Part shown: piece by piece, positions 28,350-39,649 of the stretch | How positions within the stretch are numbered: position 1 is the first letter of the stretch | How the letters are laid out: each line of letters starts with the position of its first letter | Origin: Burkholderiales bacterium | GTDB taxonomy: Bacteria > Pseudomonadota > Gammaproteobacteria > Burkholderiales > SG8-39 | Direction of reading: 5' to 3' | Assembly (NCBI GenBank): GCA_035514595.1 | Contig: DATKAX010000245.1 | Location: 1 to 57,857 of the forward strand | Length of the DNA: 57,857 nt | Notes under the pieces: model-generated | Told to the model about the DNA's origin: nothing | Seen by the model: only the letters and a program-made list of their open reading frames with translations | The model's database searches: none | Made by a program: the position numbers and the translations under genes

Positions 28350-30449
<2,100 letters not shown>

Positions 30450-30468
30450 TTATAATTTCCGCCCTCGG

Positions 30469-30555
30469 GCCGGAATGGCGGAACCGGTAGACGCAGCGGA
30501 CTCAAAATCCGCCGGTGGCGACACCATGAGAGTTCGAGTCTCTCTTCCGGCACCA
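30469..30555 (+). tRNA. tRNA-Leu (anticodon CAA), CCA encoded
   Basis: Manual fold: acceptor GCCGGAA/TTCCGGC, anticodon stem GCGGA/TCCGC with loop CTCAAAA, long variable arm, T-arm GAGAG-TTCGAGT-CTCTC. TATAAT at 30451-30456 lies upstream. Confidence 0.92.
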
Positions 30556-30676
30556 GGCGAGCGTTGCCATGTGCGACGCCGGGATAAGGGAAAACGTCGA
30601 TCGGCGGCAGTCCTTGCTGGACAGGGCGCAGGGCCGGGCGTAGGCTCTCCCGGCATTGATTCGTCCCGGGGGGGGC

Positions 30677-31765
30677 ATGGGCAAGGCGCTGATCCAAGTG
30701 CTTCCTTCGGCGCGCAACACGGTGATGGTGGTCGACGACCAGTCGACCGGACGCGCCATTCTGGAGCAGGTGGTCCGCAGCCTCGACGAACGGGTCGCGG
30801 TCGAGGGCTTCGCGCGGCCGGTCGACGCCGTGGTCTGGGCCACGCGCCACATCTCCGACCTGGTGCTGGTCGACTACATGATGCCGGAGATGGACGGCAT
30901 CGAGTTCGTGAAGCGGCTGCGCGCGCTCCCCGGCTACGAGCACGTGCCGATCGTGATGGTGACCGTGCACGACGATCGCAAGGTGCGCTACGCCGCGCTC
31001 GACGCCGGGATTACCGATTTTCTCACCAAGCCGGTCGACGCCCGCGAGTGCCTTGCCCGCTGCCGCAACCTGCTCACGCTGCGCCGGCAGCAGCTCGCGC
31101 TGGAGGACCGCCGGCGGCTGCTCGAGCACATGGTCGAGGACGCGACCCGCGAAGTGCGCGAGCGCGAGAAGGAGACGCTGCTGCGCCTCGCCCGGGCGGG
31201 GGAGTTCCGCGACGAGGAGACCGGCTATCACCTGATCCGCATGTCGCGCTACTCGCGGCTCATCGCCAACGCCGTGGGCCTGGAGCGCGACGAGGCGGAA
31301 ACCGTGGAGCTGGCCGCTCCGCTCCACGACATCGGCAAGATCGGCATCCCGGACCAGATCCTGCTCAAGCCCGGCAGGCTCGACGAAGGCGAGTGGGGCG
31401 TGATGCGGCGCCATCCGGTCATCGGCCACGAGATCCTCAAGGGCAGCGCCTCCAAGTACGTGCGCATGGGGGCGCTGATCGCGCTCGGCCATCACGAGAA
31501 ATACGACGGCTCGGGCTATCCCAACGGCCTGGTCGGCGACCACATCCCGCTTTGCGCGCGCATCGTCGCCGTGGCCGATGTCTACGACGCGCTGACCTCG
31601 GTTCGCCCCTACAAGGCGGCGTGGAGCACCGAGCAGGCGCTCGAGTACGTGGTCTCGCAGGCCGGCCGGCATTTCGATCCGCGCCTGGTCGAGGCCTTTG
31701 CCGGCATGAAGAAGGAAGTGCTGCAGATCCAGAACGAGTGGCGCGACCCGCCGCACGCGCGCTGA
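30677..31765 (+). CDS. Two-component response regulator with HD-GYP (c-di-GMP phosphodiesterase) output, RpfG-like
   Basis: REC (VMVVDDQS...DYMMPEMDG...TKP) followed by HDIGKIGIP...HHEKYDGSGYPNGL. Start taken at ATG 30677; a TTG at 30656 is also possible. Confidence 0.85.
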   Translation: MGKALIQVLPSARNTVMVVDDQSTGRAILEQVVRSLDERVAVEGFARPVDAVVWATRHISDLVLVDYMMPEMDGIEFVKRLRALPGYEHVPIVMVTVHDDRKVRYAALDAGITDFLTKPVDARECLARCRNLLTLRRQQLALEDRRRLLEHMVEDATREVREREKETLLRLARAGEFRDEETGYHLIRMSRYSRLIANAVGLERDEAETVELAAPLHDIGKIGIPDQILLKPGRLDEGEWGVMRRHPVIGHEILKGSASKYVRMGALIALGHHEKYDGSGYPNGLVGDHIPLCARIVAVADVYDALTSVRPYKAAWSTEQALEYVVSQAGRHFDPRLVEAFAGMKKEVLQIQNEWRDPPHAR

Positions 31766-34281
31766 TGAGGGGCCTGAGAGACGCGATCGCCCGCATGCGC
31801 GCCACGCTGGCGGCGCGCCCGGATACGGAGCACGAGCAGGCGCTGGTGCGCATCGTCGTCGTCGCCCTGGTCTGCCTTTACCTCGTTCCCGGCGCGCTGA
31901 CAAACGAGGAAGAGCCGACGATCCGGCTGCTGCTCGCGTACCTCGGCGTGTCGGTGCTTCTTTTCATGCGCATCCTTGCCGCGCCCGGCGTCTCGGTCGT
32001 GCGGCGCGTCGCCGCTTGCCTGGGCGACGTCGCAGTGGTCACGTGGTGCATGATCTTCCTCGACGAGCGCGCGGCGCCGCTTTTCCTGGTCTACGTCTGG
32101 GTGACGCTGGCGAACGGCTTCCGATTCGGCCAGCGCTATCTCGTGGTTTCCCTCGCGCTCAGCGTCATCGGCTTCTCGCTGGTGCTCTGGCAAAGCCCGT
32201 TCTGGCGCAGCTACTCGGCCATCGGTTACGGGCTTCTGGTCGGCTTCGTCGCGCTGAGCCTGTACGTGCGCTCGCTGGTGACGAAGCTGTTCGACGCGCT
32301 GGCGCGCGCCGAGGCGGCGAACCAGGCCAAGCGCCGATTCATTTCCGTGGTCAGCCACGAGATGAGGACGCCGCTCAACGCCATCATCGGCATGGCGGAT
32401 CTGCTGCGCGACACCACGCTCAGCCGCGAGCAGGCCGACATGCTGCAGACGCTGCGAAGCTCCTCGCGCGTCATGCTCGGTTTGATCGACGATGTGCTCG
32501 ATTTCTCCAAGATCGAGGCCGGCAAGGTGGTGCTGGAGAAGGCCGACTTCGACCTGCACGCGCTGGTCAACAGCACCTGCCGCATCCTCGCCGCCCAGGC
32601 CGCCGCCAAGGGCGTCGAGTTCGTGGTGTCGATCATGCCGGAAGTGACGCCGACGTTGCGCGGCGATCCGCATTACCTGCGCCAGGTGCTCATCAACCTG
32701 GCGGGCAACGCGGTCAAGTTCACCGAGCACGGCAGCGTCACCTTGCACGTCACGGCGCAGTCGGAGACCGAGTCCGCCGTACGCCTCAAGTTCTCGATCC
32801 GCGATACCGGCATCGGCATTGCGCCCGAGGCGCAGGCGCACATTTTCGAGAGCTTTACCCAGGCCGACCAATCCACCGGCAGGCGCTTCGGCGGCACGGG
32901 CCTGGGGACCACGATCGCCAAGCAGCTGGTGGGCCTGATGGGGGGCAAGCTTGGGCTGGAGAGCGCGGTGGGCCTGGGCAGCACGTTCTGGTTCGAGGTC
33001 GAGTTCGAGAAACAGCCCGAGCGCGTGTCGGCCGGCACGGGCGAGCTCTCCGGCGCCCGCGTGCTGCTGGTGGGCTTCCCGGCAGCGCAGCGCGAGCCGG
33101 TAGAGCATGCCCTGCAGGGCTGGGGCGCGGCCCCCATCACGGTCGCCAGCGTCGACGAGGGCGCGGCGCGCCTGATCGCCGAGATCAGCCTCGCCAAGCC
33201 CTACCACAGCGTTCTCATCTATGCGACCGGTCAGGATCTGAAGCTTGCCCAGCGCTTCCGCCGCGCCGTGCCGGACCCGGCCCCGCCGACGGTGCTCGCG
33301 GTGCCGCGGAACGCCGATGTGCCGCGGTTCGAGGCGCTTTCCGCGGGCTTCGGCGCGGTCCTCGAGTTGCCGTTCGACAAGCGGCAGCTGTTCAACGTGC
33401 TGCACTCGGTCGCCGCGGGCGACGAGGTGCGCGAAGGGGTGGTGCGCCTGCGGGACTACGCGCGGGGCGGTGCCGCGGCGCGCAGGCTGCGCGTGCTGGT
33501 GGCGGACGACAACCCGACCAACCGCGAGGTGATCGGCAAGATCCTCGAGCGCGGCGGCCACGGCGTCACCCTCGCCAACGACGGCGAGCAGGCGCTCGAC
33601 GCGATGGAAGGCGAGCGCTTCGACATCGTGCTGCTCGACCGGAACATGCCCGGAATGGGGGGCATGGAGGCGCTGCAGGCGATCCGGCTGATGACGCGCG
33701 CGCGCGAGCGGCTTCCGGTGCTGATGCTCTCGGCCGATGTGACGCCGGAGGCGAAGCGCGAGGCGCTCGAGGCGGGGTTCGACGCGTTCCTTCCCAAGCC
33801 GATCGAGGCGCTGCGCCTGCTGGAGGAGGTTCAGGCGTTTTGCGCCGTCAGGCCCGAGGAGCCCCGGCGGGTGGAGATCGCGCAACCGGCGCGCGCGCCG
33901 CGCTCCGCGGCGGCGCCCGCCTCGGTGGTCAATCTCGAGACGCTCGGGCACCTCGAGGAGCTGGGCTCCTCGGTCGCATTCGTCGAGAAGCTCATCGGCG
34001 TGTTCCTCGCCGACGGCAGCGCGCTGCTTGCGCGCGTCGAGCAAGCGCTCGCCGGACGCAACTACGGCGAGTTCCGGTCGCTGCTGCATGCCATGAAAGG
34101 TTCCTCGGCGAGCATGGGCACCGACAAGCTGACCGAGCTGTGTGCAGCGCTCGGACGGCTCAGCGACGCCGAGCTGCGCCTGCAGGCGCCCGCGCTGTTG
34201 CGTTCGCTCAGCGACGAGCTCGCCGCGGCACGCGGCGAGCTCGAGCGCTACCTGCGAGACAGGCAGCAATCCACAGGCTGA
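31765..34281 (+). CDS. Hybrid sensor histidine kinase (5-TM input, HisKA, HATPase, pseudo-REC, REC, HPt), RpfC-like
   Basis: TGATG overlap with the upstream gene. H-box SHEMRTPLN, G-boxes DTGIGI/GGTGLG, receiver VLVADDNPTN...LLDRNMPGMGG, HPt HAMKGSSASMG; 838 aa. Confidence 0.85.
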   Translation: MRGLRDAIARMRATLAARPDTEHEQALVRIVVVALVCLYLVPGALTNEEEPTIRLLLAYLGVSVLLFMRILAAPGVSVVRRVAACLGDVAVVTWCMIFLDERAAPLFLVYVWVTLANGFRFGQRYLVVSLALSVIGFSLVLWQSPFWRSYSAIGYGLLVGFVALSLYVRSLVTKLFDALARAEAANQAKRRFISVVSHEMRTPLNAIIGMADLLRDTTLSREQADMLQTLRSSSRVMLGLIDDVLDFSKIEAGKVVLEKADFDLHALVNSTCRILAAQAAAKGVEFVVSIMPEVTPTLRGDPHYLRQVLINLAGNAVKFTEHGSVTLHVTAQSETESAVRLKFSIRDTGIGIAPEAQAHIFESFTQADQSTGRRFGGTGLGTTIAKQLVGLMGGKLGLESAVGLGSTFWFEVEFEKQPERVSAGTGELSGARVLLVGFPAAQREPVEHALQGWGAAPITVASVDEGAARLIAEISLAKPYHSVLIYATGQDLKLAQRFRRAVPDPAPPTVLAVPRNADVPRFEALSAGFGAVLELPFDKRQLFNVLHSVAAGDEVREGVVRLRDYARGGAAARRLRVLVADDNPTNREVIGKILERGGHGVTLANDGEQALDAMEGERFDIVLLDRNMPGMGGMEALQAIRLMTRARERLPVLMLSADVTPEAKREALEAGFDAFLPKPIEALRLLEEVQAFCAVRPEEPRRVEIAQPARAPRSAAAPASVVNLETLGHLEELGSSVAFVEKLIGVFLADGSALLARVEQALAGRNYGEFRSLLHAMKGSSASMGTDKLTELCAALGRLSDAELRLQAPALLRSLSDELAAARGELERYLRDRQQSTG

Positions 34282-34352
34282 CGCCGGTTCGGCACGCTAG
34301 AATTCGCGCACCGCGGCGCTGATGCCGCGCGTTTATCGCGGAGTCCAACAAG

Positions 34353-35024
34353 ATGTCGTTTTTCATCACCCTGATCGAGATGACCGATTCGGCCCGTCGT
34401 GGACTGGAAGAAATCCCCAAGATGCACACGATGATCCACCACGGGCTGGAGGTCGGGGAGTACAGGGCGTTTCTGCACGACCTGTATCACATCGTCTGGC
34501 ATTTCTGCCCGATCATGGCCGCTGCCGCGGCGCGCTGCGACGATCGCTACCGGGAAGTCCGCTACGAGCTCTACGAGCGCATCGAGGAGGAAAAAGGACA
34601 CGAAACATGGGTGCTTGAGGACATTCAGGCTGTGGGAGGCGATGTCGCCGGCGCCCGTACTCATCCACCGAGCGCCCCCGTGCAAGCCATGATCGCGTTC
34701 AATTATCACGGCGCCGAACGGGTTCACCCATGTTCCGTGCTCGGGATGCTCTATACCCTCGAGGTGGTCTCCTCCGTGTACGCCGGCCGGGTTTCCGAGT
34801 CGATCGCCCGCGCGATCGGGCGCGACGTCGACGGGCCGGGGTTCAAGTTTCTCTCGTCCCATGCCACCATGGACGTCGACCATCTCGCCAAGCTCAACGT
34901 GCTGGTTAAGAAGATCGAGGAGCCGGCGGCGCAGCAATTCATCATCAACTCCACGCGCGTCAACTTCTACCAGTTCGGCCTGATGTTCCGCGAGGGAGGA
35001 TTCAGTTCCCTCGTCGCCGACTGA
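34353..35024 (+). CDS. Heme-oxygenase-like di-iron oxidase/oxygenase (iron-containing redox enzyme family) candidate
   Basis: All-helical 223 aa. Ligand-like pattern E80-x2-H83 (EEEKGHETW), E137 (YTLEVV), H170-x3-D174-x2-H177 (SHATMDVDH). GGAG lies 9 nt upstream of the ATG. Confidence 0.65.
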   Translation: MSFFITLIEMTDSARRGLEEIPKMHTMIHHGLEVGEYRAFLHDLYHIVWHFCPIMAAAAARCDDRYREVRYELYERIEEEKGHETWVLEDIQAVGGDVAGARTHPPSAPVQAMIAFNYHGAERVHPCSVLGMLYTLEVVSSVYAGRVSESIARAIGRDVDGPGFKFLSSHATMDVDHLAKLNVLVKKIEEPAAQQFIINSTRVNFYQFGLMFREGGFSSLVAD

Positions 35025-35037
35025 AGGCGCAGGACGC

Positions 35038-35979
35038 TTATCCCGCCGCCGCCAGCCGCTCCTCCGCCAGCGCCTCCGCCGTCACGTCGCTGACGTCCCC
35101 CAGCTCCGTGCGGCGCATCTGGGCGCGCACGATGCGGCCCATCATCTTGAGGTCGCGATCCTGCAGCCGGAAGGCGGCATCGACCCACACCTCCGTGATG
35201 GCGTCGAGCTCTTCGCGGGTCACCGGGTTCACCAGCTTGCGCGCGCGGTACGCGGCCTGCATGCCGTTCCTGCGCCTCGCGTTTCTGGCGATCCATTCGC
35301 GCACCGCCGTCGGTCCCTCGCCGTCCTTTGCGAGCACGTCCACAACGCCCATCTCGTGCAGCTTGGCCGCCGGCAGGATCCTGCCCGAGAGAATCAGCTC
35401 CTCGGCCGCGCGCATGCCGATGCGGCGCGACAACAGGCTGTAGGCGCCCATTCCCGGGAACAGGTTGAACAGGATCTCGGGAAATCCAAGCTGCGCGCTT
35501 TCTTCGGCAACGATCACATCCGAGGCGAGGGCGCACTCGAAGCCGCCGCCGAGCGCGTCGCCTTGCACCAGCGCGATCTTGGTGAGCGTCGGGCTGAAAA
35601 AGTTCTGCGTGCGCGGATACATGTTGTCGATGCAGAGCCGGGCGTAATGCGCCAGCGCGTCGCGGTCGCGCGCCTTGATCAGCAGCACGAACAGCGCCAG
35701 GTCGCCACCGAGGTTGAACACGCGCGGCACGCGGGAGCCGGTCACGTAGTAGTTCACCTCGTGCGTGGTGCCTTCGATCTCGACGCGCCCGCGGTTGGCC
35801 GCCAGCCGCTGGTCATGCGCAAGGATGTCCTTCAGCAGCCCCAGGCTGTAGCAGGCCGTTCCGCGCGGGTTGAAATAGCCCCAGATCGTGCCGGTGGCCG
35901 GCTCGAACTCGGTTTCATACTGAGAATTGGCCTTGCCGTAAGGCAGGCATAGCCCGACTGCATCGCGCATGTTGCTCAT
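35038..35979 (-). CDS. rpfF: DSF-family signal synthase (RpfF-like crotonase)
   Basis: VFNLGGDLALF, ALVQGDALGGGFECAL, GFPEILFNLFPGMGAYS, EVWVDAAFRL..MMGRIVRAQMRR match blocks of Xanthomonas RpfF recalled from memory. Both catalytic Glu are present. ATG 35979 is preceded by GGGAGA. Confidence 0.85.
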   Translation of the reverse strand: MSNMRDAVGLCLPYGKANSQYETEFEPATGTIWGYFNPRGTACYSLGLLKDILAHDQRLAANRGRVEIEGTTHEVNYYVTGSRVPRVFNLGGDLALFVLLIKARDRDALAHYARLCIDNMYPRTQNFFSPTLTKIALVQGDALGGGFECALASDVIVAEESAQLGFPEILFNLFPGMGAYSLLSRRIGMRAAEELILSGRILPAAKLHEMGVVDVLAKDGEGPTAVREWIARNARRRNGMQAAYRARKLVNPVTREELDAITEVWVDAAFRLQDRDLKMMGRIVRAQMRRTELGDVSDVTAEALAEERLAAAG

Positions 35980-36169: not shown

Positions 36170-38326
<2,157 letters not shown>

Positions 38327-38330
<4 letters not shown>

Positions 38331-39649
38331 GCGGCTTCGGGCGCCGTCGCGTCGGGCCGCTTCTTGCGACGGCGGCGCCGGCGCTTGCGCGGTCCGGTGT
38401 CGGGCAGCAGCATCGCCTTGCGCGCCTCCGCGTCGGCGCCCTGGAACGCGCGCCACCAGGTCTCCAGCTCGGCTGGCACCTCGCCGCTCGCCGCGCGCAG
38501 CGCGAGAAAGTCGTACGCCATGCGAAAGCGCGGCGACTCGAGCAGGCGGTAGGCGCGGTTCCCCGAGCGTATCTCGAAGCGCGGCTGCATCGTCCAGACC
38601 TCGCGCATGGTGGCGATCAGCTTGCGGGTGATCGCGAGCTTGGCGGACTGCGTCTCGAGAATTTCGTCCATCGCGCTCTCGAGCGCGGCGATCGGCTTCT
38701 CACCGCGCGCCTGGCGAGCCTTCGAGGCCGCGAGCACCTCGTGCCAGAGCAGCGCCGCGAACAGGAACGCGGGCGAAACCGGGCGCTCGGCGAGCACGCG
38801 CTCGTCGGTCTGCGCGAGGGCGAGCGTCACGAAGCGCTCGCCGAGCGGCTGCTCGAGGATCACGTCGAGCAGCGGCAGCAGCCCCTCGTGCAGCCCGACT
38901 TCGCGCAACTGCCGGAGGCAGGCGCTCGCGTGGCCCGAGAGCAGCAGCTTCAGCATCTCGTCGAACAGCCGCGCAGGCGGCACGCGCTCGATCAGCGGCG
39001 CGAGCTCGCGGATCGGCTTGCGCGTCGCCGGGTCGATGGTGAGCGCGAGCTTCCCCGCGAGCCGCACCGCCCGCAGCATGCGCACCGGGTCCTCGCGGTA
39101 GCGCGTGTCCGGATCGCCGATCATTCGCAAGGTGCGCTTTTTCAGGTCGGTGAGGCCGCCGTGAAAATCAACCACCTCCTCGGTGGCGGGATCGAAGTAA
39201 AGCGCGTTGATCGTGAAGTCGCGCCGCCGGGCGTCCTCTTCCTGGCTGCCGAAGACATTGTCGCGCAGCACCCGCCCATGCTCGTCTTTCTCGGCGGTTT
39301 GCGGATCCGCCGTGCGGAACGTCGAGACTTCGACGGTATCGCCGCCCATCATGACGTGGACCAGGCGAAAGCGCCGTCCGATGATGAGCGCGCGCCGGAA
39401 CAGCGGCTTGATCTGCTCGGGGCGCGCGTCTGTCGCGACGTCGAAGTCCTTCGGTACGATGCCCAGCAGCAGGTCGCGCACGGCGCCGCCGACCACGTAG
39501 GCCGAAAAGCCCGCCTCGCGCAGCACCGCGCAAACCCTGGCCGCGGGCGCGGACAGCGCGTCGCGGGCGAGGCCGTGCTTGCCCTGCGCTACGCGAACCA
39601 TCCGATCGGAAGGCAGCCCGAGAACCCGCCGGATGAACCTCTTGATCAT
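38327..39649 (-). CDS. pcnB: Poly(A) polymerase I
   Basis: Start MIKRFIRRV; YVVGGAVRDLLLG..PKDFDVAT; basic C-terminal tail. Confidence 0.92.

Follow-up and report, generated by a model that had tools for sequence, protein, structure and literature searches.

Gene content of the locus

The window analysed here comprises positions 1-57,857 of contig DATKAX010000245.1 of a Burkholderiales bacterium (GenBank assembly GCA_035514595.1). It contains a gene cassette predicted to serve cell-cell signalling of the rpf type, in which a gene for a candidate heme-oxygenase-like di-metal oxidase/oxygenase (HDO) is located between the gene for an RpfC-like hybrid sensor kinase and the gene for an RpfF-like crotonase, the latter belonging to the clade of diffusible signal factor (DSF) synthases (Table 1). 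The entire analysis was computational, and most of the organisms carrying this system are uncultured.

The original prediction, made from the sequence letters and a list of open reading frames (ORFs), had described an all-helical protein of 223 amino acids encoded 71 nt after the kinase gene and 13 nt away from a convergent synthase gene, and these coordinates and gaps were confirmed in the sequence. The kinase stop codon at 34281 leaves 71 nt to the HDO gene, and 13 nt lie between the end of the HDO gene and the stop codon (35038-35040) of the crotonase gene on the opposite strand. The HDO reading frame starts with an ATG that has a GGAG about 12 nucleotides upstream. A scan of 30.3-36.7 kb for promoters and terminators gave nothing informative, and no hairpin fitting the 13-nt convergent gap was found in this region.

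The regulator and kinase genes precede the HDO gene on the same strand. The stop codon of the regulator overlaps the ATG of the kinase (TGATG, 31763-31767), suggesting that both genes are translationally coupled. The translation of the regulator shows the motif HHEKYDGSGYP, and its counterparts in 28 related loci share 81-93% identity with it. In the N-terminal input region of the kinase five to six hydrophobic segments can be seen by eye between residues ~25 and 170, whereas a simple hydrophobic-window script flagged none. Judging from its architecture and position, this kinase may be a DSF sensor. The combination of a kinase of RpfC architecture and a REC-HD-GYP regulator beside a synthase gene, as expected for an rpf-type locus, is kept in most of the 49 genome loci described below, some of which are on truncated contigs.

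Table 1. Coordinates of the features discussed in the text. Positions without a prefix refer to the window, positions with an L number to related loci.
Feature	Position	Strand	Remarks
HDO gene	34353-35024	+	223-aa heme-oxygenase-like di-metal oxidase/oxygenase candidate, PF14518
Candidate ligands in HDO	E80 (with E79), H83, E137, H170, D174, H177		
RpfG-like regulator, REC + HD-GYP cyclic di-GMP (c-di-GMP) phosphodiesterase	30656-31765	+	first cassette gene; Response_reg 1.4e-24, HD_5 2.3e-34
RpfC-like hybrid sensor histidine kinase, 838 aa	31765-34281	+	HisKA 1.3e-21, HATPase_c 1.1e-26, Response_reg 1.6e-25, Hpt 6e-10
RpfF-like crotonase, DSF/BDSF (Burkholderia DSF) synthase clade, 313 aa	35038-35979	-	ATG at 35979; open frame to 36096; convergent on HDO
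Cytochrome P450	L037:5596-6927; L038:5575-6927	+	
Membrane fatty-acid desaturase (FA_desaturase)	L031:6034-6933; L008:1760-2896; L012:1778-2989	-	
Fatty-acid hydroxylase (FA_hydroxylase) and alpha/beta hydrolase	L046:2529-3500 and L046:1590-2501	- and +	
Coq4-family proteins	L039:6289-6951; L040:7662-8405; L047:6194-6928	-	
PF10118 'metal-dependent hydrolase'	L026:5959-6675	-	

Family, fold and candidate metal ligands of the HDO protein

The HDO protein matched the Pfam family PF14518 (Haem_oxygenas_2, 'iron-containing redox enzyme') with 72.5 bits (E 4.8e-20), which is above the cut-off of 28.9. It stayed narrowly below the cut-off of TENA_THI-4 (PF03070; 20.4 bits, cut-off 22) and far below that of the NCBIfam CADD model TIGR04305 (17.7 bits, cut-off 200). 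A PDB search with the single sequence yielded 3dde as the sole match (E 1.8e-7) and did not recover UndA; a profile of diverse homologues found 3dde (4.7e-37), CADD (2.6e-14), MboA (3.7e-9), UndA (1.7e-7) and, weakly, BesC. For structure prediction with AlphaFold2 a diverse alignment of 57 sequences was used instead of close homologues alone, which had given a mean local confidence (pLDDT) of 41.5. The resulting model is all-helical with ten helices and has a pLDDT of 95.5 and a predicted template modelling score (pTM) of 0.91. The top Foldseek matches of this model were 3dde (TM score 0.80), CADD (0.82-0.83) and UndA (0.75-0.77), and PqqC, TenA, BesC, HrmI and the true heme oxygenases ranked after these. 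Profile and fold comparison thus uphold the assignment to the HDO family that had been made from the ligand pattern, with 3dde, CADD, MboA and UndA as the nearest relatives, and place it outside TenA and PqqC.

The six residues that had been predicted as metal ligands, E80, H83, E137, H170, D174 and H177, are indeed present at these positions. When aligned by profile, E137, H170, D174 and H177 coincide exactly with E142, H174, D178 and H181 of CADD, and E79/E80 with E81/E82; this CADD ligand numbering agrees with the residue count in the alignment. H83 follows the first glutamate with the UndA-like spacing of +3, whereas the spacing in CADD is +7. The helices bearing the ligands in the model comprise residues 64-93, 128-154 and 165-186, and alignment and helix assignment together place the six residues in one predicted di-metal site. 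None of the six varies among 20 close homologues, and they are likewise kept in 16 of 16 proteins in which the HDO domain is fused to a crotonase, in 17 of 17 fusions to AMP-binding enzymes (both described below) and in 39-44 of 46 stand-alone representatives at 50% identity. Judged by the Pfam score and this family-wide conservation, the ligand motif is not a chance occurrence. HDO is predicted to be a soluble, O2-activating enzyme with a di-metal centre, most likely Fe2. Five further residues (W49, N117, Y143, F166 and N204) are common to the window protein and the crotonase-fused HDO domains but differ in the AMP-binding fusions.

The family is large. In a protein database clustered at 90% identity, 1176 matches to HDO were found at E <= 0.001, the best 120 of the 1176 being 78-92% identical, and at 50% identity there are 892 representatives with E <= 0.001. 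More than 500 stretches with HDO were confirmed in a metagenome scan, and the HDO/synthase system is frequent in metagenomes from soil, rhizosphere and sediment, with hundreds of contigs. Public annotations of the homologues read 'PQQ biosynthesis protein C', 'TenA family transcriptional regulator' or 'iron-containing redox enzyme family protein'.

The RpfF-like crotonase

The convergent gene had been described as an RpfF-like synthase. Its membership in the DSF synthase clade stood up, since its best PDB matches are the DSF/BDSF synthases 5fus, 6dgn, 7zq7 and 3m6m (E 1e-52 to 1e-54), compared to ~1e-15 for ordinary enoyl-CoA hydratases. The protein matches Pfam ECH_1 (1.4e-20) and passes NCBIfam NF006452/PRK08788 with 355 bits (cut-off 177). 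The catalytic glutamate pair (GGGFE...FPE), spaced 20 residues apart, is invariant in an alignment that includes Bcam0581/5fus; the catalytic glutamates of RpfF from Xanthomonas campestris pv. campestris (Xcc) are E141 and E161. What did not hold is a closer equivalence to RpfF, because the equivalog model NF053515 (Xanthomonas type) gave 218.6 bits against a cut-off of 550. As a label derived from sequence comparison, 'DSF synthase' is therefore a family-level one for the window crotonase.

The acyl-CoA ligase RpfB had been noted as missing from the locus, and this was borne out within the 57.8-kb window: a tblastn search with five AMP-binding domains gave no match below E 0.5 and hence no AMP-binding (RpfB-like) gene.

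Linkage of HDO and synthase genes across genomes

Whether the HDO family recurs beside rpfF homologues was addressed with a survey of gene neighbourhoods, and this adjacency was found repeatedly, in a convergent, a co-directional and a fused form. Among species-representative genomes, a scan found 49 loci with the HDO gene, 47 of which have a convergent RpfF-like gene; in the other two the contigs stop 2 and 833 nt past the HDO gene. All 49 loci are from metagenome-assembled genomes (MAGs), nearly all labelled Burkholderiales or Betaproteobacteria, and their HDO proteins are 69-89% identical to that of the window. The hosts of this window clade are uncultured Burkholderiales from soil and groundwater. 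Taken alone, the 47 loci could be explained by phylogenetic inertia.

Three further sets of loci extend the linkage. Lacisediminimonas sp. (WP_304795720.1) has the order regulator-kinase-HDO with a convergent crotonase gene, the HDO protein being only 43% identical and the gap between the kinase and HDO genes being 3 nt. A second clade, with HDO proteins ~45% identical to the one in the window, came from a metagenome scan for which distant homologues served as seeds. Of its 80 loci, 71 have an rpfF-like gene after the HDO gene in the same direction, and in the nine exceptions at most 351 nt of sequence are left. A convergent hybrid kinase gene is present in 25 of the 32 second-clade loci that have enough sequence. 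Finally, crotonase and HDO occur as one polypeptide of 593-685 amino acids, with the crotonase at the N-terminus and PF14518 at the C-terminus, in 16 clusters at 90% identity. The contigs encoding these fusions are up to 528 kb long, one of them is annotated as a MAG of Rhodothalassiaceae (Alphaproteobacteria), and the fused reading frame is intact at the DNA level in two independent assemblies. The crotonase half of one fusion (P0244) is 45% identical to the window synthase (E 2e-72) and passes PRK08788. A hybrid kinase accompanies HDO and synthase in all three architectures, and beside the fusions it is RpfC-like. Together, the Lacisediminimonas locus, the second clade and the fusions show a linkage that exceeds inherited synteny.

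Not every synthase of this type has an HDO partner. Loci with a PRK08788-type synthase and a kinase but without HDO were found in Mongoliimonas terrestris and at two other alphaproteobacterial loci, which makes HDO an optional module on a synthase/sensor core.

Some features were observed next to these genes. The gene for fusion P0244 is followed by genes for an MMPL-type transporter, a PhyH-family dioxygenase and a LuxI/LuxR pair (L050:10269-15345), and thus two kinds of quorum-sensing synthase are located within 6 kb. Two independent MAG contigs contain a second HDO copy directly after the first (L008:1130-1751 and L012:1145-1766); both second copies have an identical frameshift near residue 152-154, and a 3' fragment of the rpfF-like gene (L008:1032-1127) is located between the two HDO copies of L008. 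Apparently, the HDO/rpfF junction has been partly duplicated in tandem.

The cassette is flanked by queA/tRNA-Leu (29435-30490) on one side, with the gene for tRNA-Leu(CAA) at 30469-30555 (+) directly 5' of it, and by the housekeeping block panC-(dNK)-folK-pcnB (36403-38456) on the other. In Lacisediminimonas the same cassette is located between dnaK-dnaJ, which takes the place of queA/tRNA-Leu on the 5' side, and panB-folK-pcnB. With these differing flanks the cassette behaves as an insertable module beside a conserved block.

An ORF for 78 amino acids (36170-36406, +) runs divergently from the rpfF-like gene and recurs with 74-83% identity in 37 of the 49 related loci of Burkholderiales. It matches no Pfam family and is missing from Lacisediminimonas, from the second clade and from the loci with fusions, and it was therefore set aside as a component of the system. 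Long ORFs at 30475-34281 (+), 31609-34269 (-) and 32016-34322 (+), coding for 768-1268 amino acids, have no domain support of their own and were regarded as artefacts of the high G+C content; one long alternative-frame ORF across the kinase gene passes through the tRNA gene.

Lipid-modifying enzymes in related loci

In sister loci of the window clade, the stretches that separate the kinase, HDO and rpfF-like genes contain additional genes for lipid-modifying enzymes (Table 1). This makes the cassette an apparent hotspot for oxygenases that modify lipids, and such variable insertions are the pattern expected for a lineage-specific decoration of a lipid signal.

Distant HDO domains (30-36% identical) are fused to AMP-binding acyl-activating enzymes (L056:6279-9918, L057:6409-10665, L058:1-4080). 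These fusions are part of a conserved operon with genes for T_hemolysin (PF12261), AMP-binding::HDO and SDR proteins, on which a literature search found nothing. The operon in L057 is embedded among genes for hopanoids and membrane lipids, encoding squalene-hopene cyclase, SQS_PSY, MMPL and MlaC proteins. From the occurrence of AMP-binding fusions in lipid neighbourhoods, the wider HDO family may be expected to act on carboxylic or lipid substrates. Two distant homologues that stand alone (P0245 and P0246) are located on contigs with too little sequence for a gene context.

Proposed function of HDO

On balance, and with modest confidence, we favour the interpretation that HDO carries out an O2-dependent tailoring step on the fatty-acid product of the RpfF-like synthase, generating a quorum-sensing signal. 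The RpfF-like crotonase would, like other members of its family, dehydrate a 3-hydroxyacyl-ACP and hydrolyse the thioester, so that a cis-2-enoic or another medium-chain fatty acid is set free. HDO would bind the free carboxylate at the di-iron site as UndA does and, after substrate-triggered O2 activation, might oxidise the chain by hydroxylation, epoxidation, desaturation or oxidative decarboxylation. The product would be the ligand of the membrane-embedded RpfC-like kinase, which, as its domain architecture suggests, could act via a phosphorelay on the REC-HD-GYP regulator and thereby on c-di-GMP. Among these steps, the release of a fatty acid by the RpfF-like enzyme is backed by more than analogy, and the others would follow by analogy. 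The presence of UndA, an HDO acting on fatty acids, among the closest solved folds fits a fatty-acid substrate. Soil bacteria with the HDO/synthase pair thus probably make a chemically modified signal that has not yet been described.

A more far-reaching interpretation, which we put forward tentatively, is that the RpfF-like enzyme and HDO jointly act as a synthase, made of two enzymes or at times of one polypeptide, for quorum-sensing signals of a new class. These would be O2-dependent oxidised or decarboxylated derivatives of cis-2-enoic acids, for example a hydroxy- or epoxy-enoic acid or a volatile alkene, alkyne or methyl ketone, and they would be sensed by RpfC-like kinases. The output of such a system might report oxygen and iron in addition to cell density, and the additional oxygenases (P450, desaturases, hydroxylases) might diversify the signal.

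Several observations weigh against a tailoring function. At 16-18% identity to UndA, a fatty-acid substrate is proposed by analogy, and 3dde, the nearest solved structure, comes from structural genomics and has no assigned function. The alphaproteobacterial loci with synthase and kinase but without HDO indicate that HDO is dispensable for signalling in general. In the window clade the HDO gene lies in the transcription unit of sensor and regulator and not in that of the synthase, a grouping that would also suit a role in regulation or turnover. In addition, we know of no precedent for an HDO-catalysed oxidation of a 2-enoic acid.

Alternative explanations

In Xanthomonas signal levels are reset by the acyl-CoA ligase RpfB, and HDO might replace this enzyme by oxidatively inactivating the DSF-type acid, for instance by decarboxylation. 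Such a turnover would agree with the lack of an AMP-binding or RpfB-like gene in the window and with the co-transcription of the window-clade HDO gene with sensor and regulator instead of synthase. UndA-type chemistry would moreover remove the carboxylate, which is needed by DSF receptors. However, an RpfB homologue may be located elsewhere in the genome, of which one window was covered, and 71 loci have an apparent HDO-rpfF operon. Above all, HDO is covalently linked to the synthase in 16 clusters, and a stoichiometric pairing of a synthase with the destroyer of its own product would be futile. The fusions therefore favour consecutive biosynthetic steps and make turnover less likely, and together with the variable lipid oxygenases of the sister loci they speak for tailoring. 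We thus consider turnover unlikely.

The pair could also make a product that is not a signal. RpfF enzymes release free fatty acids promiscuously, and the RpfF-like protein might mainly serve as an acyl-ACP thioesterase/dehydratase that supplies HDO with free fatty acids. From these, HDO would make a hydrocarbon or oxidised lipid such as a 1-alkene or a methyl ketone, for a metabolic, membrane-related or antagonistic purpose, and the kinase would sense something else. This would be in line with UndA, a close fold match, which turns free medium-chain acids into 1-alkenes (PMC13108848). It would also be in line with the fusion of related HDOs to AMP-binding enzymes in membrane-lipid and hopanoid neighbourhoods and with the MMPL lipid exporter adjoining one fusion gene. 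The company of a hybrid sensor kinase in all three architectures, joined in the window clade by a c-di-GMP phosphodiesterase regulator, is however the signature of a signal/receptor module and renders a product without signal function rather improbable.

A third alternative is that the di-iron protein is a sensor of O2, iron, nitric oxide or redox state, or a peroxide-protective factor similar to DtpC, and that it modulates synthase or kinase by contact without transforming the signal. The HDO gene is in an operon with the kinase and regulator genes, and a control of RpfF by protein partners, namely the REC domain of RpfC and the FI domain of RpfR, is known (PMC6361424). For one HDO-like protein a protective instead of a biosynthetic function has been reported (PMC13232832). 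On the other hand, the complete ligand set of the catalytic type is kept in the stand-alone proteins and in both kinds of fusion, the characterised relatives among the top matches are all enzymes, and the AMP-binding fusions suit an enzyme of an acyl pathway and not a sensor for a DSF kinase. A regulatory or sensory role is accordingly regarded as quite improbable.

A CADD-like synthesis of p-aminobenzoate for folate, to which CADD as the second-best solved relative, folK (HPPK) ~3 kb downstream, the nearby panC and a folB gene beside one fusion gene might point, was rejected as hardly credible: TIGR04305 is missed (17.7 against 200 bits), the sacrificial residues Tyr27 and Lys152 of CADD align with K23 and V147, which shows that HDO is not a p-aminobenzoate synthase of the CADD type, pcnB-folK-panBC is a common housekeeping block, and the second clade and most fusion loci are without folate genes, the universal partner being the crotonase.

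Novelty and significance

By definition, the DSF family comprises cis-2-unsaturated fatty-acid signals whose synthesis needs only RpfF. A predicted di-iron oxygenase, conserved beside or fused to the synthase, implies a branch of this family with a chemically different signal that requires O2. The original prediction knew of no described DSF system with such an enzyme, and a full-text literature search likewise found no paper that joins proteins of the HDO, TenA or PqqC type to DSF systems. A mini-review on HDOs from 2026 mentions fatty acids for UndA alone and never quorum sensing (PMC13108848). Within the literature searched, the locus is thus a previously undescribed DSF-type system with an integral predicted di-iron oxygenase.

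If the tailoring function holds true, the chemistry of fatty-acid quorum sensing would be wider than assumed, and cell-cell signalling would be tied to oxygen and iron status. HDO would be the first member of its superfamily with a role in signal biosynthesis and, on present knowledge, would add only a second class of fatty-acid substrates to that of UndA. With two genes or one fused gene, the system is compact.

Comparison with known systems

UndA, the medium-chain fatty acid decarboxylase from Pseudomonas (4wwj, 6p5q), has the same fold as HDO, and both proteins are small, soluble and consist of a single domain. Its ligand pattern, E-x2-H, E and H-x3-D-x2-H, presumably matches that of HDO. 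Free medium-chain fatty acids, the substrate class presumed to be shared, are also what the RpfF-type neighbour would release. The low identity given above is nevertheless below the similarity expected for orthologues, so that HDO is not an orthologue of UndA, and decarboxylation by abstraction of a beta-hydrogen as in UndA would not transfer simply to a 2-enoic acid. To our knowledge, UndA is not encoded beside a signal synthase, sensor kinase or c-di-GMP regulator.

Both in sequence and in fold, the nearest solved relative is Sden_3740 from Shewanella denitrificans (3dde, 'domain of unknown function with a heme oxygenase-like fold'), in which all six ligand positions are conserved at an identity of ~20%. 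CADD (CT610), the p-aminobenzoate synthase of Chlamydia (1rcw, 8va9), shares fold and ligand positions with HDO. It differs in its folate context, in the sacrificial Tyr27/Lys152 and in a histidine at +7, whereas the histidine is at +3/+4 in HDO.

With the rpfB-rpfF/rpfC-rpfG locus of Xanthomonas the window shares a crotonase of the RpfF clade that is convergent on an operon of a kinase and a REC-HD-GYP regulator; this convergence of rpfF with the kinase/regulator operon is the Xanthomonas layout. Unlike canonical RpfF, the window synthase fits PRK08788 and remains below the RpfF equivalog cut-off. The canonical rpf/DSF systems, those of Xanthomonas as well as RpfF-RpfR of Burkholderia and Cronobacter, also differ in gene content from the window, which is without an rpfB gene nearby and has the HDO gene placed between kinase and synthase.

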